Both the position numbers and the translations under genes were made by a program. Source: Methylovirgula sp. (GTDB lineage Bacteria > Pseudomonadota > Alphaproteobacteria > Rhizobiales > Beijerinckiaceae). Taken from it: a DNA stretch of 56,343 nt. This document shows positions 2,075 through 33,676 of this stretch, one piece after another. The stretch's first letter is position 1. Each line of letters begins with the position of its first letter. The stretch covers positions 1 to 56,343 of the forward strand of contig JAYVYB010000144.1 in assembly GCA_043784625.1 (NCBI GenBank), read 5' to 3'. Below the pieces are notes generated by a model that was not told where the DNA came from, ran no database searches, and saw nothing but the letters and a program-made list of their open reading frames with translations.

Positions 2075-2208
2075 CGCAACATCCGCTTCGTCGGCGGCGG
2101 CGTCAGACGAGGACACCAAGCCTGACGGACGGTTCGGCAACCATTTCGAAATCCATTTTCGCCAATTAGAATCAGCTCTTTCTGGCTTGGAATTGGGGTC
2201 AGGCAGGG

Positions 2209-3606
2209 TCACCAATGATCCGATCCAGTAACTTGCGTACGAGAGGCCGGAAGCAAAACTGCGAAAGCCCAGAATAAAAACGCCAACTCCCCCGATAAAA
2301 ACCCCGACAGGGGCATTTGCACGAGGGCGCCGCATCCCAACGCTCCTACAACGACACCGGTACGTTTTTCACTCGACAATGCCGCCACAATGGCATTTGA
2401 CGCCGCCCAAACGCAGGCAGACAGGCACACCAACCCAACGACAATGCCCATACTCAGCCAACAAGAAATGATCATGCCATCTACAGCCACTGTTCCCGCT
2501 GAGCCCACGTCGACCACAGAATAGCCAGAACCAATCAAACCCGAATCGGGTTTATTCCAAAGCCAGGTGAACTGTTCTAAGCGCTCTCTTGCGCTGCCAT
2601 CGTCGGATCCTTGCCCAAGTGTAGCAAGTCGATCAGTGATAACGTCTCCAAAGGGGGTGAGCATGGCAATGAAAATGACTGCAACAATTCCTAGAATTGA
2701 AAATCCGGCGCGCTGCCGCGTAGGAGCAAATAGCAAACAGAAGCCGATAGCCGCAGCCATAACCAGCCACGCGGTGCGATATTGCGATAATAGCAGGGCG
2801 ATGGCCGCTGGAGCGGTCAGGATTAAAGGCAATATTCCGCCGCGCAAAAACAAAACCAAGATCAAGCCAACCGTCGTGAAAGTTGCGAAGCTGGCCGGGC
2901 CATTCATCACGCTATAGGTGCGAATGAGATAGGGCAATGGCTGTCCAGCCGAGAGAATGGTGGCGTATTTCATCCAGTAGCGATCCCAATCGGGCGGGTC
3001 AACATACTGATAAATCCCATAAATTCCCATTAATGGCAAAATCACGAGAAAAACCGAAGTTGCCGCTTCGATCATTCTGTCAGGGTCTTCCGCACGCATC
3101 AAAACGCTCGCGCCGTAAATCAGAGGCGCAATTGACTTCACGGTTCCGGACGCGGCATTGCTGAAATCACCAAGAAAAATTGTCAGGGCGGAGCCGTACA
3201 ACACACAAAATCCAACGATGACGAGGGGTACGATTTGCAAATTTGCAAAGGGCTTCCGTTCAAAATAGCCCGCCAGCGAAATTCCTGGGACAGTGATCGC
3301 CAGCAATGGGCCGATGAGCATGATGCTGCTGAAGTCGAATCCAACAGTCAAATCGACGTATCGGCGCACGAATGACACAAAGCAAAACAGCACGAGTGCC
3401 GTTTGCAAATGCGAGGCCGCGCTTTGACGCCACGCATAGTAGCCCACCGCGCCGCAACCCGCGACAAAAAGCGGGCGCGACAACGCGCCAAATGCCGGGC
3501 CGATCAACAACGTAATAATCAGCAAGCCTGCCGCGAGCAGCCATCCCGGAACGGTCAGCCTTGCCCGATCTTCCACAAGTTTGTCGGTTGAGCCGGTCGC
3601 AAGCAT
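2209..3606 (-). CDS. O-antigen ligase/polymerase-like (Wzy-type) integral membrane protein
   Basis: ORF 2209..3609, about 465 aa with roughly 10-12 hydrophobic helices, one larger loop and no soluble domain. It lies between the flippase and GT genes. The track start at 3609 is a TTG; the ATG at 3606-3604 overlaps the upstream TGA by 1 nt (TGATG). The family call rests on architecture and context only. Confidence 0.55.
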   Translation of the reverse strand: MLATGSTDKLVEDRARLTVPGWLLAAGLLIITLLIGPAFGALSRPLFVAGCGAVGYYAWRQSAASHLQTALVLFCFVSFVRRYVDLTVGFDFSSIMLIGPLLAITVPGISLAGYFERKPFANLQIVPLVIVGFCVLYGSALTIFLGDFSNAASGTVKSIAPLIYGASVLMRAEDPDRMIEAATSVFLVILPLMGIYGIYQYVDPPDWDRYWMKYATILSAGQPLPYLIRTYSVMNGPASFATFTTVGLILVLFLRGGILPLILTAPAAIALLLSQYRTAWLVMAAAIGFCLLFAPTRQRAGFSILGIVAVIFIAMLTPFGDVITDRLATLGQGSDDGSARERLEQFTWLWNKPDSGLIGSGYSVVDVGSAGTVAVDGMIISCWLSMGIVVGLVCLSACVWAASNAIVAALSSEKRTGVVVGALGCGALVQMPLSGFLSGELAFLFWAFAVLLPASRTQVTGSDHW

Positions 3607-4760
3607 CAAGACAACCCTCCCGGAGCAAGATCTTGAACCAAATCGCGGATTGAAGTTTGCATCCCTGCCACAGCATAAACGGTTTCGGCACGTTGTTGTG
3701 CGTAATCCAATTGGCCCGCAAAGCGCGGGGCGTCAGCGATTACGTTTTGAATGGCTGCGGCAAGCGCATCAACATCACCCGCCGCCACGAGACCACCCGC
3801 GTTGCCATTTTCCAGAATCTCGCCGCTGGCTCCGGCGTCGCTGGCAATGACCGGCACATGTGCCAACATTGCCTCAACCAAGGTGAGGCCAAACGGTTCC
3901 GCATCCACAGAAGGGTGTACAACGATGTCCATCGCGCGCATCAACTGTTGCACATCGCCTCTCTGCCCCAGAAACTTCACGCGGCTTTCCACTTGAAGCT
4001 CACGAACAAGCTGTTGCAACTTCGCGGCATAGGCTTGCTCGCCGAACAGTGCGTCTCCGGCAATGATCGCCGTCACCTGAGGACATTGGGCAACCGCGCG
4101 AATGACAATATCCTGCCCTTTCCACGCGGCTAACCTGCTGAAAACGCCGATCAACGGGCCATCGGGCAAGGACAGCTCTGTCCGCAATTGCGATTTTGAG
4201 CGCGATTCGGAAACTGCGGTGACGCCATTGGCAACCACCTTGACAAGAGCGGCGCGTCCGCCAGCCGCAACGAAGGCGTCAGCTGCCGCCAAAGAAGGCA
4301 CGATAACCAGTTTGGCGAACCGATTTGCCAGGAACACCTGCATTTTGAGCTGCTTGGCACCAAAATGCGCCTCACTTAAAATGTCGTGCAGGTGCCAGAC
4401 TAAATTTTTGCGGGTAAACATGCAGGACAGCGCGCTAAGCGTAAACGCTTTTTGTGAATTCGCATAAATAACGTCATATGCGCGTGTTTCGGTTCTGAGC
4501 TCCCAAACAAGGCGCGCGAGACCCGCCAGCAGTGGAAACGCGGCAGACAGCGAATTTGAGCGACGTACTCCGGCTAGATTTTGTCCGTGCACAGCCACTT
4601 TTACGCTCAATCCTGATGAGCGAAGCAAACCGGCCAAAGCGCCCTCTTCAAATACAAACGCTGCTGCATTTGGAAACGCTTTGACAACATCCACCAAAAC
4701 ACGTTCAGCGCCTGAAACTGCGCCGGTGTGACTAACAAAGACTATGCGGGGCGAAAGCAT
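3606..4760 (-). CDS. glycosyltransferase family 4 (GT-B)
   Basis: ORF 3606..4763. VVHPSVDAEPFGLTLVEAMLAHVPVIASDAGASGEIL is the GT4 E-x7-E donor-binding signature. The ATG at 4760-4758 overlaps the upstream TGA by 1 nt (TGATG); the track start at 4763 is a TTG. Confidence 0.8.
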   Translation of the reverse strand: MLSPRIVFVSHTGAVSGAERVLVDVVKAFPNAAAFVFEEGALAGLLRSSGLSVKVAVHGQNLAGVRRSNSLSAAFPLLAGLARLVWELRTETRAYDVIYANSQKAFTLSALSCMFTRKNLVWHLHDILSEAHFGAKQLKMQVFLANRFAKLVIVPSLAAADAFVAAGGRAALVKVVANGVTAVSESRSKSQLRTELSLPDGPLIGVFSRLAAWKGQDIVIRAVAQCPQVTAIIAGDALFGEQAYAAKLQQLVRELQVESRVKFLGQRGDVQQLMRAMDIVVHPSVDAEPFGLTLVEAMLAHVPVIASDAGASGEILENGNAGGLVAAGDVDALAAAIQNVIADAPRFAGQLDYAQQRAETVYAVAGMQTSIRDLVQDLAPGGLS

Positions 4761-6943
4761 CAACTTGCCCGGGCAAAAGCCGGCGCAGACGAGGAGCGCT
4801 TTTCGTAAAGCCCCTGTCGCGCCGTATCAACCATGGTCATGACAACCCCAACCACATGCCCGCCCGCAGTCTGCATGTCCCTCGCTATCGCGGAAACGTC
4901 AGCGATATCAGCTGAGCCCCAACGGGCGCAATAAATCACGCCGTCGACGCTGCCAGCAATGAGGCGGGCGTCCGGCTTGGACAAGGCGGAAGAACTGTCC
5001 AAAATTACAAGATCAAAGCGCTTTGCCCACAGCAACACGCTCTCGAGGTTATCGCCTGCCAACAATTCGCTGGAACTTACAACTGCCTGCCCGGCTGGAA
5101 TGACGAAGAGATTGGCGGTGTCAGTGGCAAAAATTGCCTCTTGCGGCTTTATTTTCTTGCGCAAGACCCCGGCCATGCCTTCTGAATCTGCCAAATTAAA
5201 CAATTTTGCAAACACCGGACGCTGAAAGTCACATTCCATAACCAAAACGCGTCGCCCAGCAAGCGCTGCTGTTTGCGCCAGAGCCAAGGCGGTGAACGTG
5301 CGACCCTCTTGAGGCGCGGCTGAACTTATTAAAACCGATTGCACATTTTTGGGCATGCCCTTCACGCGAAGGGAGGCAAAAACGCCATCCGTTGCCGAAA
5401 GGAAGCCCGCATCGGTTTTCGCGGCCGCCAGCGCCTCCGATAAGGGCAAGTCCGTCTGACCAGCTACCATATTCGAAAGACTGCGCCGGTTTGAACGCAA
5501 AAGCGGCAGCTCGGCGATAACAGGAAAACCTGTGCCGGAACTCAGCGCGGTGGCGCTGCGCAACCCCTGATCTTTTCGATCCAACATCATCGCCAAAGCA
5601 AACCCCAGAAGGGCGCCAAGGGTTAAACCGCCTGCCAGAAATGGAATTTTCTTGGGAAAAAACGGGATAATCGGCAGCTCCGCCAAACTTACGAGGCGCG
5701 TACTGCCTGCGAGCACGCGTTTTTGTGTTTCGAGATCGCCGACCTTCTTCGTCAGTTCAGTGTATTGCGTCCGTTTGATTTCCGCGTCCCGCACCAAATC
5801 TGCGATCGAGGCCTCGTCGTCGGATGCGGTACCGGCGTCGGACTGAACTTTGCCCAGTTGCTGCCGCAGGCTGGAAACAGTGGCATTCGCCGCGTCAAAA
5901 TTGCGCTGGGCACTGGCGGCAATGGAGTTCATTTCCTGATCAAGCCGCCGCCGCAACGAGTCTTGTTCTTGCTGCAAAGCAATAAGCGAGGGGTGTTTTG
6001 GCCCTAATGTGGCGGCATTGCTGGCGATTAGCCCTGCAATTGTTGCCATTTGTTGCTTTAGGTCCCCGACAGTCCGGCTGGCGATCACCGTCGGCAAATC
6101 TGTCAGACCGGAACTTTTCGCTTTTTTGACTTCGTTCAAACGCGCCAAGGCCTCGGCCCGCGCCGATTCTGCCAGATTCAGACTTTGGCTGGCACTGGAA
6201 AGCCGCTCCGAGCTGATGGGCGCAACCCCGCCCTTTACCAATCCATTTTTGCGTCGAAAGGCCTGGATGCGGTCTTCATCATCTTTCAACGATCCCTGCA
6301 ACTGAACCAACTGTTGCTTGAGCCAATTGGCCGCTTCTTCACGATTGTGGATGGCGGCGGCGCGTCGATCTCCCAAAAAAGCGTTGGTAAGCGCGTTCGC
6401 CATAGTTTGGGCCACTTCGGCAATTGGTGAGTCATACGAGATGTTGATGACGCGAGAGCGTCCGACAGCTGAAATCGAATAGTGCTGCTGAATCTGTTCA
6501 AGCAGCTTGTCGTTGGTTTTCACATCGCCTGTGCAAGACGCGTCTGCACCCAGCGGGATTATGCCGAACAGCTTCGATGTTCCGCGGGCCTGACATTCAC
6601 GAAGAATCGCCGATTGCGCCTCCGGAGTTTCTACCGCCAGTCTTAAAACCCGCGCGGCTTTGATCAGCAGTATCTGGCTTTCCATGTCCGCAGGATCGCC
6701 TAATTTGTCCGCGCCGCTAGGAGCCTGCGCATCAAGACCGATTTCGGGCTCTGCAACGATGACCGAGCCAATTGCCACATAACGAGTCTGAATGACCATT
6801 AATGCCAGAACAGCCAGCAGCAACGTGCCCAAAAAAGCGCTCAAAAACGCAGTTTTGTGCCTGAGCAGAATCGAAATGAAGTCATTCCTCGGCTTCGGGA
6901 CTCTATGTGGTGCCTGCGCGGACAAAGACTCCTGATGTTGCAT
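4760..6943 (-). CDS. polysaccharide co-polymerase / chain-length determinant with C-terminal P-loop domain (Wzc/ExoP/GumC-like)
   Basis: 727 aa. N-terminal TM helix (FLSAFLGTLLLAVLALMVI), a long coiled-coil periplasmic region, a second TM helix (IPFLAGGLTLGALLGFALAMML), then a BY-kinase-like domain (LISSAAPQEGRTFTALALA...VLVMECDFQRP...FDLVILDSSS). The Walker A is degenerate (see findings). Confidence 0.75.
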   Translation of the reverse strand: MQHQESLSAQAPHRVPKPRNDFISILLRHKTAFLSAFLGTLLLAVLALMVIQTRYVAIGSVIVAEPEIGLDAQAPSGADKLGDPADMESQILLIKAARVLRLAVETPEAQSAILRECQARGTSKLFGIIPLGADASCTGDVKTNDKLLEQIQQHYSISAVGRSRVINISYDSPIAEVAQTMANALTNAFLGDRRAAAIHNREEAANWLKQQLVQLQGSLKDDEDRIQAFRRKNGLVKGGVAPISSERLSSASQSLNLAESARAEALARLNEVKKAKSSGLTDLPTVIASRTVGDLKQQMATIAGLIASNAATLGPKHPSLIALQQEQDSLRRRLDQEMNSIAASAQRNFDAANATVSSLRQQLGKVQSDAGTASDDEASIADLVRDAEIKRTQYTELTKKVGDLETQKRVLAGSTRLVSLAELPIIPFFPKKIPFLAGGLTLGALLGFALAMMLDRKDQGLRSATALSSGTGFPVIAELPLLRSNRRSLSNMVAGQTDLPLSEALAAAKTDAGFLSATDGVFASLRVKGMPKNVQSVLISSAAPQEGRTFTALALAQTAALAGRRVLVMECDFQRPVFAKLFNLADSEGMAGVLRKKIKPQEAIFATDTANLFVIPAGQAVVSSSELLAGDNLESVLLWAKRFDLVILDSSSALSKPDARLIAGSVDGVIYCARWGSADIADVSAIARDMQTAGGHVVGVVMTMVDTARQGLYEKRSSSAPAFARAS

Positions 6944-8118
6944 CAGACCATCTCATGTTCATGGGCAGCCGGAGCTTTTTCATTATTTGGGACCAAAGGG
7001 GCGTGAACGCGATCAAACTGCTCCTGCACGAAAGTTTTGATTTCATCGCGAAAGCGGGCGGCGGAAAACCGTTCGGCTTGTTTGCGGCAGGATTGGCGCG
7101 AAAATTCACCCTCAATGGCGATAAATGCGCGCACACAGGCTGCAATATTTTGCGGCTGAGGTTCTGAAAAAAACATGCCGGTTTTATCAATACCGGTGGA
7201 TTTCACCGTTTCGAGCGCACCGCCACGCCCCAGCGCCAGCACCGGTGTGCCTTCCGCCTGCGCTTCAACCGGAATAATGCCGAAATCTTCCTCTGCGGCG
7301 AAAATAAAAGCGCGGGCGGTGGTCATAAGGTCGCGCATTTTCGCGTCGGTGACAAAGCCCTCGAATGTCACGTTCGGCCCGGCCATCTCCTTCAGCTTTT
7401 TGGCATCCGGCCCGTCGCCTGCAACGGTGAGTTTCAGATGCGGAAGCTCCGCAAACGCCTTCACAATCACATCAATATTTTTGTAAGGCACCAAACGACT
7501 GGCCACCAGAAAATGGTCGCCGCGCGGCACATCTTCCGACGCAGCGGACAAGTCAACCGGCGGATTGATCACCTTGGCGACCCGGCCATAAATCTTCAAA
7601 ATGCGGCGTGCGACAAAGCCTGAATTGGCGATCATCGCGTCGGGCCCGTGGGCGGTGCGCACATCCCAGATGCGCATGTGATACAGGATTATCCGCGCGA
7701 TAATGCTGCGAAGGCCTTTATCCGCCCCGGATTGGCGCAAATAAGCGTGCTGCAAATCCCAGGCATAGCGCATGGGCGAGTGGACATAGGCGACGTGAAC
7801 CTGGTTTGGCCCGGTCAGAATGCCCTTGGCAACCGCATAGCTGCTGGACACCACCAGATCATATTCAGAAAAATCCAACTGCTCGATGGCCAGCGGCATG
7901 AGCGGTAGATAGGCGCGATGCTTTTTGGCGATAAACGGCATCCGCTGCAAAAAGCTGGTTTTTACCGTGGAAATACCAATTTTTTTGCGGTCTTGCTCGG
8001 TTAGAACGTCAAAAAGGCAAAAAACATCGGCACCGGGATAGCATTTGAGCAGCTCGCTCAACACACGCTCCGCGCCGCCGATCACGTATAACCAGTCATG
8101 GACAATAGCCACACGCAT
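6943..8118 (-). CDS. glycosyltransferase family 4 (GT-B), first gene of the EPS operon
   Basis: 391 aa. MRVAIVHDWLYVIGGAERVL N-terminus and FIFAAEEDFGIIPVEAQAEGTPVLALGRGGALETV E-x7-E motif. The stop overlaps the next ATG by 1 nt. Confidence 0.8.
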   Translation of the reverse strand: MRVAIVHDWLYVIGGAERVLSELLKCYPGADVFCLFDVLTEQDRKKIGISTVKTSFLQRMPFIAKKHRAYLPLMPLAIEQLDFSEYDLVVSSSYAVAKGILTGPNQVHVAYVHSPMRYAWDLQHAYLRQSGADKGLRSIIARIILYHMRIWDVRTAHGPDAMIANSGFVARRILKIYGRVAKVINPPVDLSAASEDVPRGDHFLVASRLVPYKNIDVIVKAFAELPHLKLTVAGDGPDAKKLKEMAGPNVTFEGFVTDAKMRDLMTTARAFIFAAEEDFGIIPVEAQAEGTPVLALGRGGALETVKSTGIDKTGMFFSEPQPQNIAACVRAFIAIEGEFSRQSCRKQAERFSAARFRDEIKTFVQEQFDRVHAPLVPNNEKAPAAHEHEMV

Positions 8119-8520
8119 ACCAAAAGCCTTTAACAGAACGCAAACATCGAAATTTAGACCAAAATTAGAGCAACCGGGTTAAATCTTTCATAAGCCAAGC
8201 TGACAAAGGCGACCTCATCAGTGGCGCAATAAGCGCAGTCAAAATCGTTTTGTGCGAATTTGCCACCGATCTCAACTCTTGGTTAAGATTCATATCCGCC
8301 GCAAAATTCAGTCAAAATTGTGTAAAATGCAGCCTTTTCGCGCTTGAATTTGCCTGCTTGGTGCAGCAATTAACCAAAAAGCACCAAACACAACTGAAGT
8401 GCGAAGGCCGCGTTAACGCATTTCCGGGCACTGATTTTGTGGTTTGTTTACGAACTGAAGATATCGTTTTGCGACGAACAACATCACTGCCGCCAGTGAT
8501 AAACCTATCGGGGAACTTCA

Positions 8521-8772
8521 ATGGTCGAAGAAATTCGGCAGCTTATTGCCAAACACTGCAAAATGCCGACGGATGTTGTGACGCTTTCGGACACATCTGA
8601 CCTTTACGCCGCCGGTTTAAGCTCGTTTGCATCGGTGCAACTGATGCTGGCACTGGAAAACCACTACGACATCGAATTTCCCGAGACCATGCTCAACCGC
8701 AAAACCTTTTCCAGCATTGCGGCAATTGAGGCGGCGCTCAAACAAATCCTTCCAGCCGGAGCCGCAGCATGA
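8521..8772 (+). CDS. acyl/aminoacyl carrier protein (phosphopantetheine-binding)
   Basis: 83 aa. DLYAAGLSSFASVQLMLALE carries the carrier-protein GLxS attachment serine at the start of helix 2. GGGGA lies upstream of the ATG. The stop overlaps the next ATG (ATGA 8769-8772). Confidence 0.8.
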   Translation: MVEEIRQLIAKHCKMPTDVVTLSDTSDLYAAGLSSFASVQLMLALENHYDIEFPETMLNRKTFSSIAAIEAALKQILPAGAAA

Positions 8773-9956
8773 CATCGGTCCTTGCGCCAAACCTCTCCGT
8801 GGACATCGTCGCGCGGGCCAGGCGGGTGGGAGCAATAGCCGCGACCTTTGCTGCCGACGTTGACCTGCACGCCCGCTTTCCCGCCGAAACGGTTGCGGCG
8901 CTCAAAAGCGAACGTCTACTGAGCATTATGATCCCGAAAGAGCTTGGCGGTGAGGGCGCTTCGGCGGCACAAATTTGCGAGGTTTGCGCTATTCTGGGAC
9001 AAAATTGCGCCTCAAGCGCCATGATTTTCGCCATGCACCAGATCAAATTGTCGAGTCTGGTCTCGCATGGCATGGACGCGGACTGGCATCGCGGCTTCAT
9101 GCAGCAGATTTCGAAAGACCAGCTTTTGCTGGCCTCCGCCACCACAGAGGGTGGCATTGGCGGCGATTTGCGCAATTCAATCTGTGCGGTGGTCACCAAC
9201 GGCGATGATTTTACGCTCTCCAAGGATGCGACGGTCATTTCCTATGGTTCGGTTGCCGATGCCATTTTGGTGACCGCCCGCGCCAATCCTGACGCCCCCT
9301 CCTCGGACCAGGTCATGGTTGTGGCGCTCAAGGGGCAGTACACTCTGGAACAAACTTCCGTTTGGAACACGTTGGGCATGCGCGGCACCTGTTCGGAGGG
9401 GTTTAAATTTAACTGCACAGCCCCGGTTGCACAAATTTTGCCGAAGCCGTTTGCAGAGATAGCGGCGCAATCAATGCTCTCGGCTTCCCATCTGTTTTGG
9501 GGCGCGCTTTGGTATGGCATCGCCTCTGAAGCGTTCAACCGCGCCCAGGCTTTTGTCAAAGCAGCCGCGCGCCGCGCCCCAAGCGTCACGCCTCCGGGGG
9601 CTTTGCGCCTGTCGGAGGCGGCAGTCACGCTGCAAACTATGCGCGCAACTTTGAAGGAAGGCGTGCTGCGGTATGAAACGGCCCGCAAGCGCCCGGATGA
9701 TATGTCTTCCATTGCCTTTGCCACCGCGATTAACAACGTGAAGGTGGCTATGTCGCAATCCATGCTGGAGGTGATCGACCAATCCCTGCTGATTTGCGGC
9801 ATCATGGGTTATAAAAACGACACGCCTTTCAGCCTTGGACGCCATTTGCGCGATGCGCATTCGGCAAGGTTGATGATTTCCAACGATCGCATTTTGCTCA
9901 ATACGTCCAATTTGCTGCTGATGGCGCGGGCGGACTCCAGCATTTTAGGACTTTAA
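8769..9956 (+). CDS. acyl-CoA dehydrogenase-fold flavoprotein (dehydrogenase or ACAD-fold oxygenase)
   Basis: 395 aa with the ACAD three-domain layout: helical N-terminus ERLLSIMIPKELGGEGAS, a middle beta domain, and C-terminal helices ..GIMGYKNDTPFSLGRHLRDAHSARL.. It is translationally coupled to the ACP gene. Confidence 0.7.
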   Translation: MTSVLAPNLSVDIVARARRVGAIAATFAADVDLHARFPAETVAALKSERLLSIMIPKELGGEGASAAQICEVCAILGQNCASSAMIFAMHQIKLSSLVSHGMDADWHRGFMQQISKDQLLLASATTEGGIGGDLRNSICAVVTNGDDFTLSKDATVISYGSVADAILVTARANPDAPSSDQVMVVALKGQYTLEQTSVWNTLGMRGTCSEGFKFNCTAPVAQILPKPFAEIAAQSMLSASHLFWGALWYGIASEAFNRAQAFVKAAARRAPSVTPPGALRLSEAAVTLQTMRATLKEGVLRYETARKRPDDMSSIAFATAINNVKVAMSQSMLEVIDQSLLICGIMGYKNDTPFSLGRHLRDAHSARLMISNDRILLNTSNLLLMARADSSILGL

Positions 9957-10895
9957 ATGGCAAACCACATTGCAACCCCGCAAGCTGACTCCGCCCAATT
10001 GGAGTTTTTGAATGCCCTGTTTGACAAAGGCGTCTTGGTGGATACCGGCGTTGACGGTCTTTATGGCCGCTCTGGAGAATTTGAAGACGTGGTCACCCGT
10101 TTTGATGCGCTGGTCACACGTTATGGGGCTGCCGACAAAGCGGAGGCGATGCGTTTTCCGCCGGCCATGAGCCGCAAAACCTTCGAAACGTCGGGCTATC
10201 TAAAGAGTTTTCCGCAGCTTGCAGGCACCGTTCACTCTTTCTGCGGCAATGATCATGACCACACCACTTTGCTGGAGCGGGTCGCCACAGGTGAGGATTG
10301 GACCAAAGATCAACAGGCCACCGACGTGGTTTTGACGCCCGCTGCCTGCTACCCGCTTTATCCTGTCATCGCCAAACGGGGCCCTCTGCCCGTTGAAGGT
10401 CGTTTATTTGATTTGCAGAGCTATTGTTTCCGCCACGAACCTTCGCAAGACCCGGCACGTATGCAGCTGTTTCGTATGCGCGAATATGTCCGCGCCGGAA
10501 CGCCGGAGCAGGTGCTGGCATTTCGCGAAAGCTGGCTCGAGCGCGGACAAAAACTGATGGGGTCGCTTGGTGTTCCGTTGGAAATTGACATCGCCAACGA
10601 TCCGTTTTTTGGCCGCGCCGGGCGCATGATGAAGGCTGGACAGCGCGAACAGGGCTTAAAATTCGAACTGCTTATCCCGATTACCAGCACAGAAAAGCCG
10701 ACCGCCTGTCTGAGCTTTAACTACCATCAAGATCATTTTGGTCAGACTTGGGGCATTCAGACCGCCGATGGCGCTGTCGCACACACCGCCTGTGTCGGCT
10801 TTGGGCTTGAACGCGTAACATTGGCATTATTCAAGCATCATGGTCTCGATTTAGCCAAGTGGCCCAAGGCTGTAACCAAAGAACTCTGGGGTTAG
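9957..10895 (+). CDS. amino acid--[acyl-carrier-protein] ligase (SerRS-like class II aaRS catalytic core without tRNA-binding domain)
   Basis: 312 aa. Class II motif 2 is YCFRHEPS (aa 156-163) and motif 3 is [12 protein letters not shown] (aa 281-292). Cys131 (AACYP), Glu176 (MREY) and Cys279 (TACVG) sit where methanogen-type SerRS and aa:CP ligases hold their Zn. There is no coiled-coil or anticodon domain. The gene follows ACP and ACAD genes, as in the published Agrobacterium/Bradyrhizobium loci. Confidence 0.8.
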
Positions 10896-10901
10896 CGCTC
10901 C

Positions 10902-11891
10902 ATGGCTTTGGCCTGTTTTCCCGATACGCATTTGCACGGATACCAACGCCACGCGCTGCATGACAGCGAGCGCGCCTGGCCGGAAACCAACTGCTATGTT
11001 GATGTCTGGATTGAGGTTCTCTCGCAACTCAAGCTGCCGCCGCAAGCGGCGCTCGCCTTTACCGTGGCTCAGGATTTTGAAGGCGATCAGCTCACATTTT
11101 TCAAATATCCACTTGAAGACCTTGAAGCCGCCTATGGCATCAAGGTGCAGGAACTGGCGATTTTTGATGATGTGGCCGAGCATATCGCCGTGCAACTCGG
11201 GCGAAAACGCCTCTGCCTCGTGGAAATGGACAGTTTTTATATGCCGGACACCCACGGGGTGGCCTATGGTCTTGAGCATGGAAAGACCACTGTAGCGATT
11301 AACCGCCTCGATATTGGCGCTAAAACCATGGAATATTTCCACAACGGCGGCTATTTCAGGCTTGAGGGCGCAGATTTTGACGGCGTATTTCAGAAACATG
11401 CCAAAGACGCACTGTTTTTGCCCTACACCGAATTTGCCAAATTTGATGATCTGCAAAAACTTGATGACCTGCAAGACGCAAAAGACCTGCATCAGCGCAG
11501 TTTAAAGCTTTTGGCGCATCACCTTGCCCGCCGTCCCAAACACAATCCGGTTGCGGCATTTGCCGGAGTTTTCGCCGGTCAGGCCAGCGCATTGATATCC
11601 AAGCCCGAGGGATTTTTCCATAAATATGCCTTCAACACCTTACGGCAGATGGGCGCAAACTTCGCGCTGCTGGCTGACTATCTGCGATGGCTCGTGGCAA
11701 ACGGCGAAACTGAGCTTTCAAGCGCGATAGAGGGTGCCGATCGTATTTCCGATACTGCCAAAGTTGTACAGTTTCAGTTGGCGCGCGCTGTTGCCCGCCA
11801 GAAGTTTGATACGCTTGGCACGACGCTCGAACCCGCCGTTGAAGCTTGGGAGACGACGATGAGCCATCTCGCCTCCCGCTATGGCCACTGA
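10902..11891 (+). CDS. hypothetical protein, DUF1839-like (family name from memory, unverified); possible papain-fold acyltransferase
   Basis: 329-aa soluble ORF packed between the ligase and the GH2 gene. It has a Cys31 motif (WPETNCYVDVWIEVL) followed by His126 (GLEHGKTTVAI). The coding call is supported by operon packing; the function is not established. Confidence 0.6.
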   Translation: MALACFPDTHLHGYQRHALHDSERAWPETNCYVDVWIEVLSQLKLPPQAALAFTVAQDFEGDQLTFFKYPLEDLEAAYGIKVQELAIFDDVAEHIAVQLGRKRLCLVEMDSFYMPDTHGVAYGLEHGKTTVAINRLDIGAKTMEYFHNGGYFRLEGADFDGVFQKHAKDALFLPYTEFAKFDDLQKLDDLQDAKDLHQRSLKLLAHHLARRPKHNPVAAFAGVFAGQASALISKPEGFFHKYAFNTLRQMGANFALLADYLRWLVANGETELSSAIEGADRISDTAKVVQFQLARAVARQKFDTLGTTLEPAVEAWETTMSHLASRYGH

Positions 11892-14307
11892 TATGCGCGC
11901 GTTTTCGCGCACTGAAGGCGAGGAATTCGAAATTCTGAATTCCGGTTGGCGCATGGCCGCCGGGCACTATGCGACGCCATTTGACCTTGAAAACGCCGAT
12001 TGGCTCAGTGCTATTGTACCCGGAACCGTCGCTGGCGCGCTTGCAAACAACGGCAAATTTGACCCGCAAAACCCTCATCCCTTGCAAAATCAGGATTTTT
12101 GGTATCAGAGCATCATCAGCGGCGCTGGCACTTATGAGCTGCACTTTGACGGATTGGCCACCCTGGCAGATGTGTATCTCGACGAGACATTGGTATTGTC
12201 ATCGTCGAACATGTTCCACAAAAATGTGGTGAGCGTCACCCTGCAAGGCGACCACCGGCTTTCGATTCATTTTCGCGCACTAACCTCCGCGCTTGCGGCG
12301 TCAAAACCCCGCGCCCGCTGGCGGACACAGATGATGCCTGAGCAGGGGCTGCGCCATGTCCGCACCGCTTTGCTCGGGCACATGCCCGGATGGTGCCCCA
12401 ACATCGAGGCTATTGGCCCGTGGCGTCCGATTTCGTTGGTAAAAACGCATGCTTTAAACCCGCGCAATTTGCGCATTCAGGCCGAGCTTCACGGCGACAA
12501 TGGCAAACTTTCTGTCGGCATTGACCTTGAGAGCGGAAAACGCGTGGAGCTGCACTGCGGCGAACATTCGACCCAGATGCACGACAATGGCGGCACATAC
12601 GTTGGCGTTCTTAACATCGAAAATGTGCGAAAATGGTGGCCGCATACGCATGGCGAGCCTGCGCTTTATCCGCTTTCTCTCAAAATCGATGGTCAAAAAA
12701 TCGATCTCGGTAACACCGGATTCCGGCAAATAGTGATTAATCGCGGTGCTGATGGCAAGGACTTCGCGCTTTTTTGCAATGGCAAGCCCATTTTCTGCCG
12801 TGGCGCGGTCTGGACCAATGCAGACATTCTCAACCTTTCCGGCACACGCGAAACCTACGCGCCGTTTTTGCAGCTCGCCCGCGACGCAAGTTTCAACATG
12901 CTGCGCATGAGCGGCACTGGCGCTTACGAAACCCGCGCCTTTTACGACCTTTGCGCCGAACTTGGCATCCTGATTTGGCAGGACTTCATGTTTGCCAACT
13001 TTGACTACCCCACATCAAACCAAGACTTTTCCGCATCCTGCTCCAAGGAAGCGGCAGATTTTCTTGAAACAACGCAAGGCAATCCGGCATTGGCGGTGCT
13101 GTGCGGCGGCAGCGAAATGTACCAGCAAGCCGCCATGATGGGCCTGCCTGCGGCAAGCTGGCCTCAAGACCTCTCAGAAACGATTTTAGAGGGCGCTGGC
13201 TTCGAAGTCCGCCCTGATATGCCATATGTGGTCAATTCGCCTAGTGGAGGCCCCCTGCCCTTCGCAGCGAACGAAGGCGTCACCCATTATTACGGCGTTG
13301 GCGCCTACAAGCGCCCGCTGGACGATGCCCGCCGCGCCAATGTCCACTTCGCCACAGAATGTCTGGCATTTTCGCAGGTTCCGGATGGCAACCTCGACCC
13401 TGCGGATGCGCACTGGAAACACACCGTCCCCAAAGACCGGGGCGCAGATTGGGATTTTGAAGACACCCGGGAATTTTATCTGGAAACCCTGTTCAAAACC
13501 AACGCCGCAGAGCTTCGCGCCGCCACGCCTCAACTTTGGCTGGAAGCCTCCCGCGCTGTCACCGGTCATGTCATGGAAACCACATTCGCCGAGTGGCGGC
13601 GCGTGGGATCAAGCTGCAACGGCGCGTTGGTATGGACGTTTCAGGATATGCAGGCCGGGTTGGGATGGGGCATCGTCACGGCAAAATCACAGCCGAAACC
13701 TGCCTGGTTCGCCCTCAAGCGCGCCTGCAAACCGCAACAGGTTTTGCTCACCGACGAGGGCTGCAATGGCCTGTCCATTCACCTGATCAACGAAAGCGCC
13801 GCCCCGCTTGCAGCCAGACTGGAATTTAGCTGCCTGCAACACAACGGCCTCGCCATTATCCACGAAGAAAAATATGTCACGCTGCCGCCGCGATCGGCGC
13901 AGGAGATAGCTTCATCGAGCATGATCGGGGCTTTTTTCGATACAACCTATGCGTATCGGTTTGGCCCGCAGGCGCACTATGGCTCTGTTGCCAAGCTGTA
14001 TGACACAGTGGCAGGAACTCTCATTGCCGAAGCGTTTCACTTCCCAGAAATGCGGGCGCTTGACCGGCATGAAATTGCTTTTACCGCGCGCCTCGAGGTC
14101 AGCCCGGCCGGAACAGATCTCATTTTGGAAACGCCGGAATTTCTACACTTTGTTCATATTCATGACGTAGAGTTGAGGCCAAGCGATAACTGGTTTCATC
14201 TTGAACCGGGCCGCGCAAAACGCGTGAAACTGGCCGGTTTCAAACCTGATTCAAAAATTGAGGTTTCGGCGCTTAATGCCACCAATCAGGTCGCAATTAT
14301 TCAGTAA
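11881..14307 (+). CDS. glycoside hydrolase family 2-like protein (beta-mannosidase / exo-glucosaminidase type)
   Basis: 808 aa. WQDFMFANFDYP, CGGSEMYQ and FATECLAFSQVP resemble the GH2 TIM-barrel strands that carry the acid/base and nucleophile Glu. No signal peptide. The ATG overlaps the preceding gene by 11 nt (alternative ATG at 11893). Confidence 0.7.
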   Translation: MATDMRAFSRTEGEEFEILNSGWRMAAGHYATPFDLENADWLSAIVPGTVAGALANNGKFDPQNPHPLQNQDFWYQSIISGAGTYELHFDGLATLADVYLDETLVLSSSNMFHKNVVSVTLQGDHRLSIHFRALTSALAASKPRARWRTQMMPEQGLRHVRTALLGHMPGWCPNIEAIGPWRPISLVKTHALNPRNLRIQAELHGDNGKLSVGIDLESGKRVELHCGEHSTQMHDNGGTYVGVLNIENVRKWWPHTHGEPALYPLSLKIDGQKIDLGNTGFRQIVINRGADGKDFALFCNGKPIFCRGAVWTNADILNLSGTRETYAPFLQLARDASFNMLRMSGTGAYETRAFYDLCAELGILIWQDFMFANFDYPTSNQDFSASCSKEAADFLETTQGNPALAVLCGGSEMYQQAAMMGLPAASWPQDLSETILEGAGFEVRPDMPYVVNSPSGGPLPFAANEGVTHYYGVGAYKRPLDDARRANVHFATECLAFSQVPDGNLDPADAHWKHTVPKDRGADWDFEDTREFYLETLFKTNAAELRAATPQLWLEASRAVTGHVMETTFAEWRRVGSSCNGALVWTFQDMQAGLGWGIVTAKSQPKPAWFALKRACKPQQVLLTDEGCNGLSIHLINESAAPLAARLEFSCLQHNGLAIIHEEKYVTLPPRSAQEIASSSMIGAFFDTTYAYRFGPQAHYGSVAKLYDTVAGTLIAEAFHFPEMRALDRHEIAFTARLEVSPAGTDLILETPEFLHFVHIHDVELRPSDNWFHLEPGRAKRVKLAGFKPDSKIEVSALNATNQVAIIQ

Positions 14308-14347
14308 AAACTCATTTTTTCATTTCACGTTTTCAATAATTTGAGCC

Positions 14348-16144
14348 CTATTTAGGATTCAAAGTCTCAACACGTTGAATCACTTTCGCAATCTCTTCAA
14401 AAATAGCGATTTGTGCATGCCCAGCGGTCATGTTGTGATCTGCATCATCAACAGTGCGTAATGTGACATTGGGAAACCGCGTCAACCACACGCCGCCGCC
14501 GCCACAGTATTTTGCCAGCTCGTCCAAGCCGCCATCCCCTTGCGCGTAAACCAAACCCACCTGAACGCGGCGCTGCTCAAACCCGAAAAACCGGGCGCGA
14601 ACCTGACCTCTCAACCGCCCGAGCAGCGTCAAATCTCCGGTTAATCCAACCAGTTTGGAGTTCAGTTTTGCGCCCATTTTGGCGGCCACTTTTCGCGCCA
14701 GTGACACAACCGGGAGCTGAAATGTGACCAGCCTTACCAAGGTGTCCCGGGACAATGCCCGCGCGCCGTAGGAGCCCAGAGAGCCTGAACCACCGGCCAT
14801 TGCCTGTTCCAAAGTTTCATCCGGGTTCCAGATCAGACGCAAGGCATTGATCGAAACCAAGCCGGAAATACGCGGGTCAGACTCCGCCGCAAGACCGGCA
14901 ATATAGGCGCCGGAACACCGCCCCGCGACAATGACAGGCCCCGCTTGGCGCGCACAAACCATATCGATAGCATGGCCTACATCGTCAATTTGCACCTGTG
15001 AATACAGCACATCCGGCGGGCTGTCGGGCGCGGTGTCACTGTCGCCAAGGCTGGCACAATCCATGCGCAAAGTGGCAATGCCAATGGAGGCAAGCCGCCG
15101 CGCCAGAGCAACATGTCCGCGCGCCCAACCCACATGCGGATTGTAGCCCGAATTGGGAATGATCACTGTCGCGCGGCGCGCACCGTGCGGCAAACATAGC
15201 ACGCCATAGAGCCGGCCATTCGGCCCAAAGCATAAGGCCTCTTCGGAAAATCCGTCTCGATCTTGCCGCAAAACTGCGTCGCCAATAGGTAAATCGCGAC
15301 CCTCCTGTTCACCACGGTCAGGGAATTTTTGCTCAAGCCAAGCGGAAATTTTCGCAAAATCGTCAACGGGCGCGCGCGGAGTCTCCAGATGCGCCACAAA
15401 AGCATCATAGCCTTCAAAATTCTGTACGGTCACAGCCACCCCGTGCGCAACGAGGCTTGCAGCAAAATCCGCGTCGGAGGGGCGATGTTCGCGGGCCAGA
15501 ACAAGTGCGGAGGCAACAGTTTCCAGCCCGCTACTTTCGGGCTTCAGACTCTTAAGCTGCTCAACCAGCGGCTTGGACAGACGAAATCCGCCGATGTTAA
15601 GCGCGTCATTGGCATCAAGCTCAACCGGAATGCGCAACGCCGAAGCAACCATTGCCCCCCATAGTTCCAGCTCCCGCACCCCGGAGCGCCCGCCCGGCAT
15701 GGGGGCAAGCGCAATCAGCGCCCCAGCGCTAATTTTATCAACCATTTCAACGCCAAGGAGAGCGCCAAGCCCCTGACCCAACACCACAAGATGCTCAATT
15801 ACAGTGCTTTCACGCAAAAACTGTGCGGCCTTTTCAACGGCGGACAGCCAGTCATTGACGTCGATAATGTCGCTGTTGTGGCCAAGACTGTCACCGGTTC
15901 CCGGCAAATCAAACCGCAAACAGGCGAAACCTGCCGCAGCCAGCGTTTCGGCCAACCGCCGCCACCCCTGCCGGATGGTGAATTCCTCAAAGCCCCACGG
16001 CGAAATCATCAAAACGCCGACATTGCCGCGCGCGGGGTGCAGAAATCCGGCACAACCGTCAAAAGCGACAGGGATACCGCCTTTGCGGTCAAAAAGCCCG
16101 GATTTTGCGGCAAGCGCAGACGCATCTGTTTGAAGTAGGGTCAT
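14348..16144 (-). CDS. fused tandem alpha/beta-hydrolase-fold protein (two modules)
   Basis: 598 aa. Two homologous halves: aa ~30-290 (GVLMISPWGFEE...LRFDLPGTGDSLG...VLGQGLGA) and aa ~300-598 (ATVIIPNSGYNP...LRMDCASLGDSD...VAGRCSGAY...DDADHNM). Convergent with the GH2 gene. Confidence 0.65.
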   Translation of the reverse strand: MTLLQTDASALAAKSGLFDRKGGIPVAFDGCAGFLHPARGNVGVLMISPWGFEEFTIRQGWRRLAETLAAAGFACLRFDLPGTGDSLGHNSDIIDVNDWLSAVEKAAQFLRESTVIEHLVVLGQGLGALLGVEMVDKISAGALIALAPMPGGRSGVRELELWGAMVASALRIPVELDANDALNIGGFRLSKPLVEQLKSLKPESSGLETVASALVLAREHRPSDADFAASLVAHGVAVTVQNFEGYDAFVAHLETPRAPVDDFAKISAWLEQKFPDRGEQEGRDLPIGDAVLRQDRDGFSEEALCFGPNGRLYGVLCLPHGARRATVIIPNSGYNPHVGWARGHVALARRLASIGIATLRMDCASLGDSDTAPDSPPDVLYSQVQIDDVGHAIDMVCARQAGPVIVAGRCSGAYIAGLAAESDPRISGLVSINALRLIWNPDETLEQAMAGGSGSLGSYGARALSRDTLVRLVTFQLPVVSLARKVAAKMGAKLNSKLVGLTGDLTLLGRLRGQVRARFFGFEQRRVQVGLVYAQGDGGLDELAKYCGGGGVWLTRFPNVTLRTVDDADHNMTAGHAQIAIFEEIAKVIQRVETLNPK

Positions 16145-16410
16145 TTTGGCGGATTAAACCTCTGAATTTCAGCATAGGCTCGCATAAAAGCACAGCATTT
16201 ACCGCTCAATTTGCCCAACATGCTTAAAGCACTGTGACAAAAAGGGCCGCCATCATGAGCCCAACTGGCCAGAGCAACACACCGCTTTTGGCTGATCCCC
16301 GACCCGACTTAAACGCCGCGATTTGCCTCCTCAGCTTGCAGAAATACAAGTTGGTAATGTTCGAGAGTGAAATATTTTGGCCGGTTAGTATCTCTATACA
16401 GCAAAAATCC

Positions 16411-16556
16411 GGCCATATTTGGCCTGAAATTTAGGCAAAATTTATAAATATGTTTGTTTTCAACACTTTAGCTTGGCCGACTTTTGGCCACTTAACGGCG
16501 CAGTTCGGCCAAAAACCGGCCAAACATGGCCAAGGCAAACCAGCGCGAAACTGGCC
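16411..16556. repeat. helically phased array of GGCC(A) motifs in the rbsK-hydrolase intergenic region
   Basis: GGCC begins at 16411, 16421, 16475, 16486, 16507, 16518, 16528 and 16553. The spacings are 10, 54, 11, 21, 11, 10 and 25 nt. The usual context is YYGGCCA. An AT-rich block at 16430-16470 splits the array. Confidence 0.6.
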
Positions 16557-17476
16557 TAAAGTGCCAGCAAGTGTTCCACCTCCGACAGGCTCGGCATCGA
16601 CGGTGCTGTGCCGGCACGCGTCACTGAGATACCCGCAACAGCGCAGGCAAAGCGCGCCGCCTCCAACGGGGCAAGCCCCCGCGCCAGCGCCGAAGCAAAG
16701 CCGCCGTTAAACGCATCTCCCGCGCCGGTCGTTTCAACCAGCTTACCGGCATAAACCGCCGGAACGTGATGCGAACTGGTTTTAGAGTGGAGCAACACGC
16801 CGTTCTCGCCCAAAGTGATCAAGGCTGTACCGACACCTTTGCTCAGAAGAATGTCTCCCGCGCGGCGCGCATCTTCCAAAGTGCGCACTTCAACCCCGGC
16901 CAGCTCGGAGGCCTCCGTCTCATTTGGCGTGATGTAGTCACACAGCGCAAAAATATGCTCAAGCAAATGCGCGGCGGGTGCCGGATTAAGGATGGTGATG
17001 ACGCCCGCCTGTTTGGCGATTTCCAGTGCCCGCACCGCCGCCGCGAGCGGTTGCTCCAATTGCGTAATAAACACACCGGCGCTGCGGATGAGGTCGGCGT
17101 TGGCTTCAATATCCGCCACGCTGATCAGAGCCGCCGCACCGGGACTAATAATGATGGCGTTGTTGCCTGTCGCTTCTTCCAGAAAGATAAACGCGGCGCC
17201 GGTATAGCTCTCGGGTGTTTCAATCACCGAAAACTTCACGCCGGACTTGAGCCAGACATCGCGGGCCATGTCGGCGAAGGCGTCTTTACCAAGCCGGGTA
17301 ATCAACGAAACATCAGCACCAAGCCGCCCGGCGGCGACAGCCTGATTGGAGCCCTTGCCTCCCGGGCCCAGCGCAAAGCCGCTGCCCAGAATGGTCTCGC
17401 CAATGCGCGGCTGGCGCGCCGCACGAAAAGCCGCGTCGGCCACAAAAACACCCAGAATAACCACACTTTTTTGCAT
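16556..17476 (-). CDS. rbsK: ribokinase (PfkB family)
   Basis: GGKGSNQA and TGAGDAFNGGF ribokinase motifs. The longest ORF (start 17566) would run over the upstream gene, so the start is set at MQKSVVILG (ATG 17476), 8 nt after the fucU stop. Confidence 0.8.
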   Translation of the reverse strand: MQKSVVILGVFVADAAFRAARQPRIGETILGSGFALGPGGKGSNQAVAAGRLGADVSLITRLGKDAFADMARDVWLKSGVKFSVIETPESYTGAAFIFLEEATGNNAIIISPGAAALISVADIEANADLIRSAGVFITQLEQPLAAAVRALEIAKQAGVITILNPAPAAHLLEHIFALCDYITPNETEASELAGVEVRTLEDARRAGDILLSKGVGTALITLGENGVLLHSKTSSHHVPAVYAGKLVETTGAGDAFNGGFASALARGLAPLEAARFACAVAGISVTRAGTAPSMPSLSEVEHLLAL

Positions 17477-18070: not shown

Positions 18071-18874
18071 ATGGGACAAACAATGTCTTCGCTGAAAATT
18101 GATGCCCTGCTGGCCTTGCGGGGCAACGGACGCCTGATGATTGGGCGAGAGCGCATCGCGCTGCTCGAGTCTGTGGCCGAGCTTGGCAGTATTTCCAAGG
18201 CAGCCAAAACAACCGGTCTTAGCTACAAAACGGCATGGGAGGCGGTAAATGCTATCAACAACCTCCTGCCCGTGCCTGTTTTTCTCACCAAGGCGGGAGG
18301 GGCGGCGGGCGGCGGCGCGGAAGTCACGCCTGAAGGACGCCGCCTGATCGAGACATTTCACCGCCTTGAAGCACGCCTTTCTAAAATATCATCGCTTATC
18401 GCCGCAGAGGGGCTGGACGGCCAGGAGGATGTGCTGCTCTGGAGCCTTGGCAATAAAATATCAGCGCGAAATATCTTCCAGACAACCGTGCTATCGCTCA
18501 ATAAAACCGCCGTCGATGTGGAGCTCAAGCTCCAATTATCGCACGGCCACGCCATAACAGCTCTGGTGACCAACGCCGCCTGCGAAGACTTGGCGCTGGT
18601 TGAGGGCCGCAGAACCTTGGCCATCGTCAAAGCGCCATTTGTGAGGATTTTGCCCCCGAAAGTCCAACCGGATGGCGCGTCAAACTGGTTTGAGGGCACC
18701 ATTTCCCGCCGCACCGATGCGGAACACAATTGCGAATTTTTGCTTGATATCGGCTACGGAAAAACTCTGACGGCAGTGGTACCCATCGCTTCCGTTGCGA
18801 AGATGGAATTGGTTGAAGGCGGCGCGGCCACGGCTCATTTTGACGCAAACCACGTTATTCTTGCAGTTGACTAG
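18071..18874 (+). CDS. modE: molybdate-responsive transcriptional regulator ModE
   Basis: N-terminal HTH (IALLESVAELGSISKAAKTTGLSYKTAWEAVNAINNL) plus two C-terminal Mop/TOBE repeats (SARNIFQTTV..., SNWFEGTISRR...). Adjacent to modABC. Confidence 0.85.
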   Translation: MGQTMSSLKIDALLALRGNGRLMIGRERIALLESVAELGSISKAAKTTGLSYKTAWEAVNAINNLLPVPVFLTKAGGAAGGGAEVTPEGRRLIETFHRLEARLSKISSLIAAEGLDGQEDVLLWSLGNKISARNIFQTTVLSLNKTAVDVELKLQLSHGHAITALVTNAACEDLALVEGRRTLAIVKAPFVRILPPKVQPDGASNWFEGTISRRTDAEHNCEFLLDIGYGKTLTAVVPIASVAKMELVEGGAATAHFDANHVILAVD

Positions 18875-18939
18875 CTGAAATTTGGCGTTTTCACACCCAA
18901 AATTGAAATGTTGAGCACTTTCCGAAACGCTTGCCTAGT

Positions 18940-18962
18940 GTTATGTAATAAAAATACATAAC
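18940..18962. promoter_or_regulatory. candidate ModE operator (Mo-box) in the modA promoter
   Basis: Perfect inverted repeat GTTATGTA-ATAAAAA-TACATAAC, ending 16 nt upstream of the modA ATG. It resembles the enterobacterial and Rhodobacter Mo-box CGNTATAT-N-ATATANCG. Confidence 0.5.
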
Positions 18963-18977
18963 GCTTTGAGGTTTTCC

Positions 18978-19730
18978 ATGCACATGAAATCCAGCATAAA
19001 AGCAATATTCACTTTTGCCTCGATAATCTTCGCCGCGCCGCTTTCTGCCGCACAAACCAATGTCGCCGTTGCGGCCAATTTCACCGCAGCCGCAAAAGAA
19101 ATCGCTTCCGGCTTCAAGGCCAAAACCGGGCATGAGGCGGTGCTGAGCTTTGGCGCATCCGGACAATTCTATACGCAGATCAGCCAAGGCGCGCCATTTG
19201 ACATCCTGCTGTCGGCGGATGATACCCGCCCGAAAAAACTGGTCGAAGACGGGCTCGGCGTCAAGGACACTGAATTTACCTATGCCATTGGCAAGCTGGT
19301 TTTGTGGAGCAAAAACCCTGATCTGGTCAAAGGTGAAGACACGTTAAAAACGGCAAGCTTTACCAAGATCGCCATCGCCAATCCAGCCTCGGCCCCCTAT
19401 GGGGCGGCGGCGTTGGAAACCCTGAAAAACCTCAACCTCGGCGAGGTGCTGGGCCCGAAAATCGTACAGGGCAATTCCATCGCCCAAACCTTTGAGTTCA
19501 TCGATACCACCAACGCGGAACTTGGGTTTATTGCGGTGTCTCAACTCACGGGAAATAGCTCAGGCTCGCGCTGGCTGGTGCCGCAAAATCTGTATAGCCC
19601 AATCAGGCAGGACGCGATATTGCTGAAAAACGGCGCGCAAAACCAAGCTGCGCTGGCCTTTCTGGACTATTTGAAAAGCTCTGAAGCGCATGACATCATT
19701 GATAAATTTGGCTATGACGCTGCAAAGTAG
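18978..19730 (+). CDS. modA: molybdate ABC transporter substrate-binding protein
   Basis: Signal peptide MHMKSSIKAIFTFASIIFAAPLSAAQ. Motifs FGASGQF and ANPASAPYG. GAGG lies 7 nt before ATG 18978; the track start at 18966 is a TTG. Confidence 0.9.
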   Translation: MHMKSSIKAIFTFASIIFAAPLSAAQTNVAVAANFTAAAKEIASGFKAKTGHEAVLSFGASGQFYTQISQGAPFDILLSADDTRPKKLVEDGLGVKDTEFTYAIGKLVLWSKNPDLVKGEDTLKTASFTKIAIANPASAPYGAAALETLKNLNLGEVLGPKIVQGNSIAQTFEFIDTTNAELGFIAVSQLTGNSSGSRWLVPQNLYSPIRQDAILLKNGAQNQAALAFLDYLKSSEAHDIIDKFGYDAAK

Positions 19731-19736
19731 CCGGGC

Positions 19737-27516: not shown

Positions 27517-27572
27517 GAGGTTTAACTCCATAAATTCGGTCAGACCATAGAATCGATGATAATCACGGTCAA

Positions 27573-27667: not shown

Positions 27668-27693
27668 TATTTCAATCACCAACGAGGTGACAG

Positions 27694-28596: not shown

Positions 28597-28663
28597 CGGC
28601 ACAAGGGAAGCAAATAACGAGAAAAGCCTGCAATTCAGCGGGCAAATACAGGGAGTAGAAATC

Positions 28664-29671: not shown

Positions 29672-29700
29672 TCTGATTATCGTCCGGTTGTTGTATCGGG

Positions 29701-33672: not shown

Positions 33673-33676
33673 GCCT

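Follow-up and report, generated by a model that had tools for sequence, protein, structure and literature searches.

We analyzed a 56,343-nucleotide stretch of Methylovirgula sp. DNA (contig JAYVYB010000144.1, positions 1 to 56,343; hereafter the window) and conclude that the open reading frame (ORF) at 9957-10895 on the forward strand is most likely the gene of a working amino acid:[carrier protein] ligase. The enzyme would consist of a free-standing class II aminoacyl-tRNA synthetase core, dependent on Zn and derived from the methanogen-type seryl-tRNA synthetase (SerRS). Taken jointly with our best explanation of the whole locus, we give this reading a probability of about 0.85. Family membership, fold, alignment of key residues, pairing with a carrier protein, synteny and purifying selection were all observed directly. 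The family has been known since 2010, was crystallized and biochemically characterized in 2010-2013, and is now named automatically by NCBI; the window ligase is an intact, ordinary member, and the gene itself adds little. Its value lies in its context: a tightly coupled five-gene cassette, head-to-head with a Wzx/Wzy polysaccharide locus, in which the DUF1839 protein (the orthologue of Atu2574) can be read as a likely off-loading transacylase.

The 312-residue product matches the NCBIfam equivalog NF005479, “amino acid--[acyl-carrier-protein] ligase,” with 524.1 bits against a cutoff of 357, over residues 6-312 of the ligase and positions 11-317 of the 318 in the model. This near full-length match leaves no space for a coiled coil or other tRNA-binding domain. 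Canonical SerRS models failed, NF002120 scoring 66.8 bits (cutoff 611) and TIGR00415 scoring 47.7 (cutoff 489.55), both through the core only. Searching the PDB by sequence returned Bll0957, the Bradyrhizobium japonicum glycine:[carrier protein] ligase 1 (3mey, 4h2w, and related entries), over residues 19-306 with E-values of about 1e-98 to 2e-98; the type-2 SerRS of M. kandleri and M. barkeri matched at residues 123-308 only. Structure prediction, a check proposed by the first-pass annotation of this DNA, gave a similar ranking: with the AlphaFold2 model of the ligase (pLDDT 81), Foldseek found Bll0957 first (4h2w, 4h2s, and 3mf1; TM 0.80-0.84), methanogen-type SerRS next (3w3s and 2cj9), and ordinary SerRS and ProRS cores after these. 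The ORF, 312 codons and a stop, is the longest available in its frame, and its ATG abuts the stop codon of the upstream gene (TAAATG), ruling out an N-terminal extension. The annotation had described a stand-alone class II core with the architecture of amino acid:[carrier protein] ligases, lacking tRNA-binding parts and anything like the SerRS N-terminal coiled coil, and that description stands.

The catalytic signatures are complete. Indexing the translation places class II motif 2, YCFRHEPS, at residues 156-163 (10422-10445, forward strand, as for all features of the gene), with Arg159 and Glu161; motif 3 occupies residues 281-292 (10797-10832), includes Arg286, and begins with Gly281, a candidate specificity residue. 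The same indexing puts Cys131 in AACYP (129-133), Glu176 in MREY (174-177), and Cys279 in TACVG (277-281), with codons at 10347-10349, 10482-10484, and 10791-10793, in agreement with every detail given by the first-pass annotation. In a MAFFT alignment, and in HMMER alignments with type-2 SerRS, these three residues share columns with the Cys/Glu/Cys of Bll0957, where they have the same residue numbers, and of the M. kandleri and M. barkeri SerRS. The Zn ligands are reportedly Cys131/Glu176/Cys279 in Bll0957 and Cys306/Glu355/Cys461 in M. barkeri SerRS, a numbering with which our alignments agree in their chain offsets. On that literature basis we regard the three window residues as putative Zn ligands. 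Among 99 full-length family representatives the triad is near-invariant (Cys131 in 99, Glu176 in 96, Cys279 in 94), as are the motif 2 residues Arg159 (98/99) and Glu161 (96/99). The resemblance to methanogen-type SerRS (M. barkeri 2cim and 2cj9; M. kandleri 3w3s) covers the Cys/Glu/Cys columns, motifs 2 and 3, and a core of about 180 residues at 23-27% identity (E 1e-14). In contrast to those enzymes of about 500-520 residues, the window ligase has no N-terminal tRNA-binding domain, its predicted acceptor is a carrier-protein thiol instead of tRNA, and serine is not its expected substrate.

The direct acceptor is clearly predicted from the neighboring genes. Two genes upstream, at 8521-8772 on the forward strand, lies a dedicated aminoacyl carrier protein of 83 residues, with PF00550 and a predicted phosphopantetheine site at Ser35 (nucleotides 8623-8625). 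It passes the NF005480 equivalog (106.6 bits, cutoff 72), the next-best NCBIfam model being DltC. Its PDB matches at E 1.7e-24 are 2jq4 (Atu2571) and 4h2w_C, the chain that 4h2w labels aminoacyl carrier protein, DLYAAGLSSFASVQLML and the region of the phosphopantetheine site being identical; the Bradyrhizobium carrier 4h2s_C is matched at E 7e-4 only. Because NF005480 is passed and the Atu2571/4h2w_C match is this strong, we assign this protein, an Atu2571 orthologue, to the ligase as its direct acceptor. The first-pass annotation had left the acceptor open, and this adjacent carrier answers the part that concerns the direct acceptor.

The carrier protein and ligase belong to a cassette in the order acyl carrier protein (ACP), acyl-CoA dehydrogenase (ACAD)-like protein, ligase, DUF1839 protein, and GH2 glycoside hydrolase. 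Successive junctions consist of ATGA, TAAATG, a 6-nt gap, and an 11-nt overlap, and the five genes form a translationally coupled operon. A promoter and terminator scan of 8000-16600 gave counts no higher than shuffled controls, so the boundaries of the operon are set by gene spacing alone. Synteny was assessed in the 80 best genome loci, with ligases at least 69% identical, from Hyphomicrobiales, Azospirillum, and Myxococcaceae; neighbors were scored by tblastn when in conserved order and on the same strand as the ligase. DUF1839 stands beside the ligase in all 80 loci and the ACAD-like gene in 78, while the ACP gene lies upstream in 77 and GH2 follows DUF1839 in 77; the missed neighbors that were checked, in three loci, fall at contig ends. 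These counts come from the tblastn table together with spot Pfam checks, a census by ORF clustering having been set aside on account of antisense ORFs in GC-rich DNA. The same cassette order occurs in Agrobacterium vaccinii.

The ligase gene is under strong purifying selection. Relative to the nearest locus, an orthologue in a Methylovirgula metagenome-assembled genome, it is 79% identical in nucleotides and 94% identical in amino acids; 154 codons differ only synonymously and 20 non-synonymously, the latter mostly in the first ten residues. Because of these differences, and because homologues fill more than 8000 clusters at 90% identity, many already named amino acid--[ACP] ligase, the ORF is a real coding frame and no chance reading frame; clustering at 50% gave 320 clusters at E ≤ 1e-30. 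A serS remnant in decay, or a SerRS variant that charges tRNA, would account for the label “seryl-tRNA synthetase” that homologues still carry in some database sources and for the weak, sub-threshold match to Pfam tRNA-synt_2b (22 bits vs 29.3). This explanation is very improbable, as the dedicated equivalog is matched full-length, the catalytic motifs are all intact, a tRNA-binding domain is absent, the gene is strongly constrained in an operon kept in 80 genomes, and characterized homologues do not charge tRNA (PMC9437257; PMC5370406). The synonymous excess likewise led us to reject a pseudogene. The first-pass annotation had itself named two refuting outcomes, Cys/Glu/Cys displaced from the active-site Zn positions, and a decayed serS fragment with unconserved synteny to an ACP; both fail against the shared alignment columns, the purifying selection, and the ACP gene's presence in 77/80 loci.

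Judged by sequence, both ligase and carrier are of the Agrobacterium Atu2573/Atu2571 type and not of the type of the Bradyrhizobium Bll0957 pair, because the A. vaccinii orthologue (from a locus retrieved via its DUF1839 gene) shares 66% identity with the ligase vs 51% for Bll0957, because the pocket string TACVGFG is shared, and because the carrier matches Atu2571 at 1.7e-24 vs 7e-4 for the Bradyrhizobium carrier. The sequence next to the second Zn cysteine is HTACVGFG in the window ligase and in Agrobacterium but HTGCVAFG in Bll0957, so that Ala278/Gly281 in the window face Gly278/Ala281 in Bll0957. All 25 of the close homologues that were aligned keep ACVG; of the 99 family sequences, about 57 have Gly at position 281 and about 39 have Ala. 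Because residues 278 and 281 and the carrier all differ, an amino-acid preference different from that of Bll0957 is expected. Atu2573 is said to prefer Ala and Bll0957 Gly, and A281G reportedly shifts Bll0957 towards Ala and Ser; from these reports and Gly281 we predict alanine over glycine as the more likely preferred substrate, at slightly better than even odds. Weighing against this call, it draws on one pocket position together with published reports, and position 278 differs as well, being Ala in the window and Gly in Bll0957. A glycine-specific enzyme like Bll0957, feeding glycyl-S-carrier protein into the pathway, would suit the facts that the sole crystallized relative is a Gly:[carrier protein] ligase, that loading of Gly or Ala is reported for the family (PMC5370406), and that the Zn-bound pocket is small in all members, but the greater closeness to the Agrobacterium orthologue, the Agrobacterium pocket string with Gly281 where Bll0957 has Ala, and the Atu2571-type carrier make it rather unlikely.

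A further segment of interest is the helix at residues 219-231 (10611-10649), which distinguishes wild-type from engineered Bll0957. Crystallized with the A. tumefaciens carrier (4h2w), the engineered protein departs from the wild-type sequence solely in this helix, RAGKMLANNQRDQ vs RVGQMKAVSQKQQ, and scores slightly higher against the window ligase (332.5 vs 328.4 bits), in keeping with the Agrobacterium type. In our AlphaFold2 model the segment is predicted to be helical, at low pLDDT (51-57). As a clue to specificity we also sought a riboswitch, such as that for glycine, in the leader at 8050-8600, and found none: the 400 nt upstream of the ACP gene gave no riboswitch-like match even at E ≤ 1, and no Rfam family reached its gathering score anywhere in the window (1-56343).

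Comparison with the two characterized pairs places the window locus close to that of Agrobacterium. With Atu2573/Atu2571 it shares the five-gene cassette of ACP, ACAD, ligase, DUF1839, and GH2, along with the ligase and carrier similarities described above; it differs in host lineage, in adjoining a Wzx/Wzy locus and a fused double hydrolase, and in the sequence of the 219-231 helix (MMKAGQRE vs MLVNNQRD). With Bll0957 (3mey, 3mf1, 3pzc, and 4h2s-4h2y) it shares the fold, the triad, motifs 2 and 3, the absence of a tRNA-binding domain, and an ACAD gene as neighbor; the carriers, in contrast, are weakly related.

The gene after the ACP, at 8769-9956 on the forward strand, encodes a 395-residue flavoprotein of ACAD fold. 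Pfam domains Acyl-CoA_dh_N and Acyl-CoA_dh_1 are above their cutoffs, Acyl-CoA_dh_M is below (23.4 bits, cutoff 33.3), and no NCBIfam equivalog matched. The usual catalytic Glu is missing: LMIS stands where the MCAD/SCAD base position has IYEG, and inspection by eye shows no Glu at the IVD position either; a replacement motif, “..Mi.NDRI,” is kept in 42 orthologues. Its profile matches both acyl-CoA dehydrogenases and the amine (amino-sugar) N-oxygenases DnmZ, KijD3, and ORF36 in the PDB, with overlapping E-values. The sole firm point, as read from the alignment, is the loss of both canonical Glu positions.

Downstream of the ligase, at 10902-11891 on the forward strand, lies the 329-residue DUF1839 protein (PF08893, 418 bits), the Atu2574 orthologue. 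Its invariant residues include Cys31 (nucleotides 10992-10994) in a TNCY motif, H126, T129, T130, and H147. In the AlphaFold2 model (pLDDT 87), an alpha/beta region at the N-terminus is joined to a helical C-terminal region, a layout resembling the two-part papain-like fold of CtaG and CcbD, and the top Foldseek matches are AziU3/U2, CtaG, and CcbD (TM 0.53-0.64; E 5e-7 to 1.6e-3). A published survey assigns DUF1839 to the papain-like proteins and gives its triad as C-(T/S)-H (PMC10318531). CtaG belongs to the thiotemplated papain-like transacylases and carries its catalytic Cys close to the N-terminus (PMC7183216; PMC12865890). CcbD follows a ping-pong mechanism through a Cys-acyl intermediate and moves a prolyl group from a carrier protein onto an amino sugar (PMC12945683). 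In both, the catalytic Cys accepts acyl groups from carrier-protein thioesters (PMC7183216; PMC12865890; PMC12945683). From the modeled fold, DUF1839 is probably a carrier-protein-dependent transacylase and the likely off-loading enzyme of the cassette.

The last cassette gene, at 11881-14307 on the forward strand, encodes an 808-residue, beta-mannosidase-like GH2 glycoside hydrolase with Pfam GH2 N-terminal and Ig domains, matching beta-mannosidase 5n6u at E 4e-43. Convergent with the operon, at 14348-16144 on the reverse strand, is a 598-residue fusion of two alpha/beta-hydrolase halves (Pfam Hydrolase_4 and Abhydrolase_6), with sub-threshold matches to TIGR03101, exosortase-A-associated hydrolase 2 (residues 42-246), and TIGR03100, hydrolase 1 (residues 301-589). 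A homologue of this double hydrolase occurs within 10 kb of the ligase, on either strand, in 58/80 loci. Divergent from the operon and outside the core cassette, a Wzx/Wzy-type polysaccharide locus, identified by Pfam and NCBIfam, occupies 497-8118 on the reverse strand: a MurJ-like flippase (497-2335), a Wzy-like Wzy_C protein (2209-3609), a GT4 glycosyltransferase (3606-4763), a Wzc-like chain-length and tyrosine-kinase protein (4760-6943), and a second GT4 (6943-8118). Wzc and GT4 are equally placed in Methylovirgula and Methylobacterium loci only among the 80; in spot Pfam checks, the cassettes of Bosea, Pannonibacter, and Mesorhizobium are flanked by GT4, Polysacc_synt flippase, and GH5 genes.

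We propose that the ligase would use ATP to convert a small amino acid to the aminoacyl-adenylate and pass it to the phosphopantetheine thiol of the carrier protein. The ACAD-like flavoprotein may then modify the tethered aminoacyl group; the papain-like DUF1839 protein would take the acyl group onto Cys31 and deliver it to a sugar or glycan, at an amine or a hydroxyl; and GH2 and the alpha/beta hydrolases may process the resulting glycoconjugate. Alanine preference, flavoprotein chemistry, DUF1839 off-loading, and a glycan as final acceptor are the steps that we infer. Such a pathway would resemble DltA/DltC and CcbD/BtrH/CtaG, in which a small amino acid is thioesterified to a dedicated carrier and then moved to a glycan or sugar. 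It would differ from DltA/DltC in that the activating enzyme is a class II aminoacyl-tRNA synthetase core and not an ANL-family adenylating enzyme, and from CtaG/CcbD/BtrH in that DUF1839 has no detectable sequence similarity to them and another proposed triad, and in the cassette's extra ACAD-fold enzyme.

Much of this was foreseen. Aravind and colleagues described this gene neighborhood in a note added in proof in 2010. They predicted amide formation by Atu2574, joining the amino acid to an amino sugar of the cell surface, and oxygenation of the aminoacyl group by the redox enzyme (PMC2922099). A 2022 review gives the physiological role of amino acid:[carrier protein] ligases as unknown (PMC9437257). 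Our results agree with the 2010 prediction and leave the overall picture unchanged, adding fold-level support that is newly possible because the CtaG and CcbD structures were solved in 2022-2025. What is new here is this structural support and the clear adjacency to an exopolysaccharide (EPS) locus, the concept itself dating from 2010 (PMC2922099); cassette context and the CtaG/CcbD structures together sharpen that prediction of what these ligases are for. What interest remains concerns the cassette's physiological role, a question to which this locus brings a clean EPS-adjacent example.

Extending this, we tentatively suggest, at somewhat less than even odds, that the cassette is a widespread system of Alphaproteobacteria and Myxococcota that places a flavoenzyme-modified alanyl or glycyl group on a sugar of EPS, lipopolysaccharide, or a glycolipid precursor. 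With the same reserve, the modification may be N-oxygenation or dehydrogenation, and the double hydrolase an optional member. If so, DUF1839 would constitute a new sequence family of thiotemplated papain-fold transacylases, and amino acid:[carrier protein] ligases would gain a physiological role. Several observations weigh against the proposed pathway. DUF1839 resembles CtaG and CcbD in structure alone (TM about 0.6, 11-15% identity): a profile search of PDB sequences found nothing, and no tie at sequence level emerged to BtrH_N or to other Pfam families, those of the papain clan included; its proposed C-(T/S)-H triad differs from Cys-His-Asp/Glu; and AziU3/U2, its top structural match, is not a transacylase (PMC12865890). 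Polysaccharide genes are adjacent in some genera only, with Wzc in 23/80 and GT4 in 10/80 loci by tblastn, and the neighbors of the A. vaccinii cassette are thiamine genes and an ABC exporter. No obvious signal peptide was found in the cassette proteins, as judged by eye without a predictor; if they are cytoplasmic, a “cell-surface sugar” would have to be modified at the precursor stage.

The absence of any signal peptide obvious by eye would also suit cytoplasmic synthesis of a small secreted natural product, siderophore-like or signaling, in place of polysaccharide decoration, with DUF1839 coupling the aminoacyl group to a small amine in the manner of CtaG, AsbE, and BtrH. The structural relatives of DUF1839 all come from secondary-metabolite pathways, and in A. 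vaccinii the cassette is followed by a 905-residue ABC exporter, without adjacent glycosyltransferases. We nevertheless consider such a product, and such a coupling role for DUF1839, doubtful, and less probable than sugar modification: the GH2 glycosidase is an invariant member of the cassette (77/80 loci), BtrH and CcbD themselves acylate sugars, and GT4, flippase, Wzc, and GH5 genes recur around the cassette in Methylovirgula, Methylobacterium, Bosea, Pannonibacter, and Mesorhizobium.

Other genes nearby were also identified. In A. vaccinii, thiC/thiO/thiS/thiG precede the cassette in place of polysaccharide genes, and the exporter that follows it, at 9649-12366 on the forward strand of the retrieved locus (L081), combines ABC_membrane and ABC_tran domains and is accompanied by a cNMP-binding protein. 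In the window, 18071-21514 on the forward strand encodes a ModE-like regulator (HTH_1 and TOBE) and then a molybdate-type ABC uptake system composed of an SBP_bac_11 protein, a permease, and an ATPase with a TOBE domain. Beyond it lie two ordinary-looking clusters for sugar or polyol catabolism: 25429-35041, with a class II aldolase-SDR fusion (715 residues), a DeoR regulator, a sugar ABC transporter, and an FGGY kinase; and 36140-50369, with a 797-residue aldehyde dehydrogenase, a DeoC-family aldolase, two FGGY kinases, Zn- and Fe-dependent alcohol dehydrogenases, an SDR, and a second ABC transporter.

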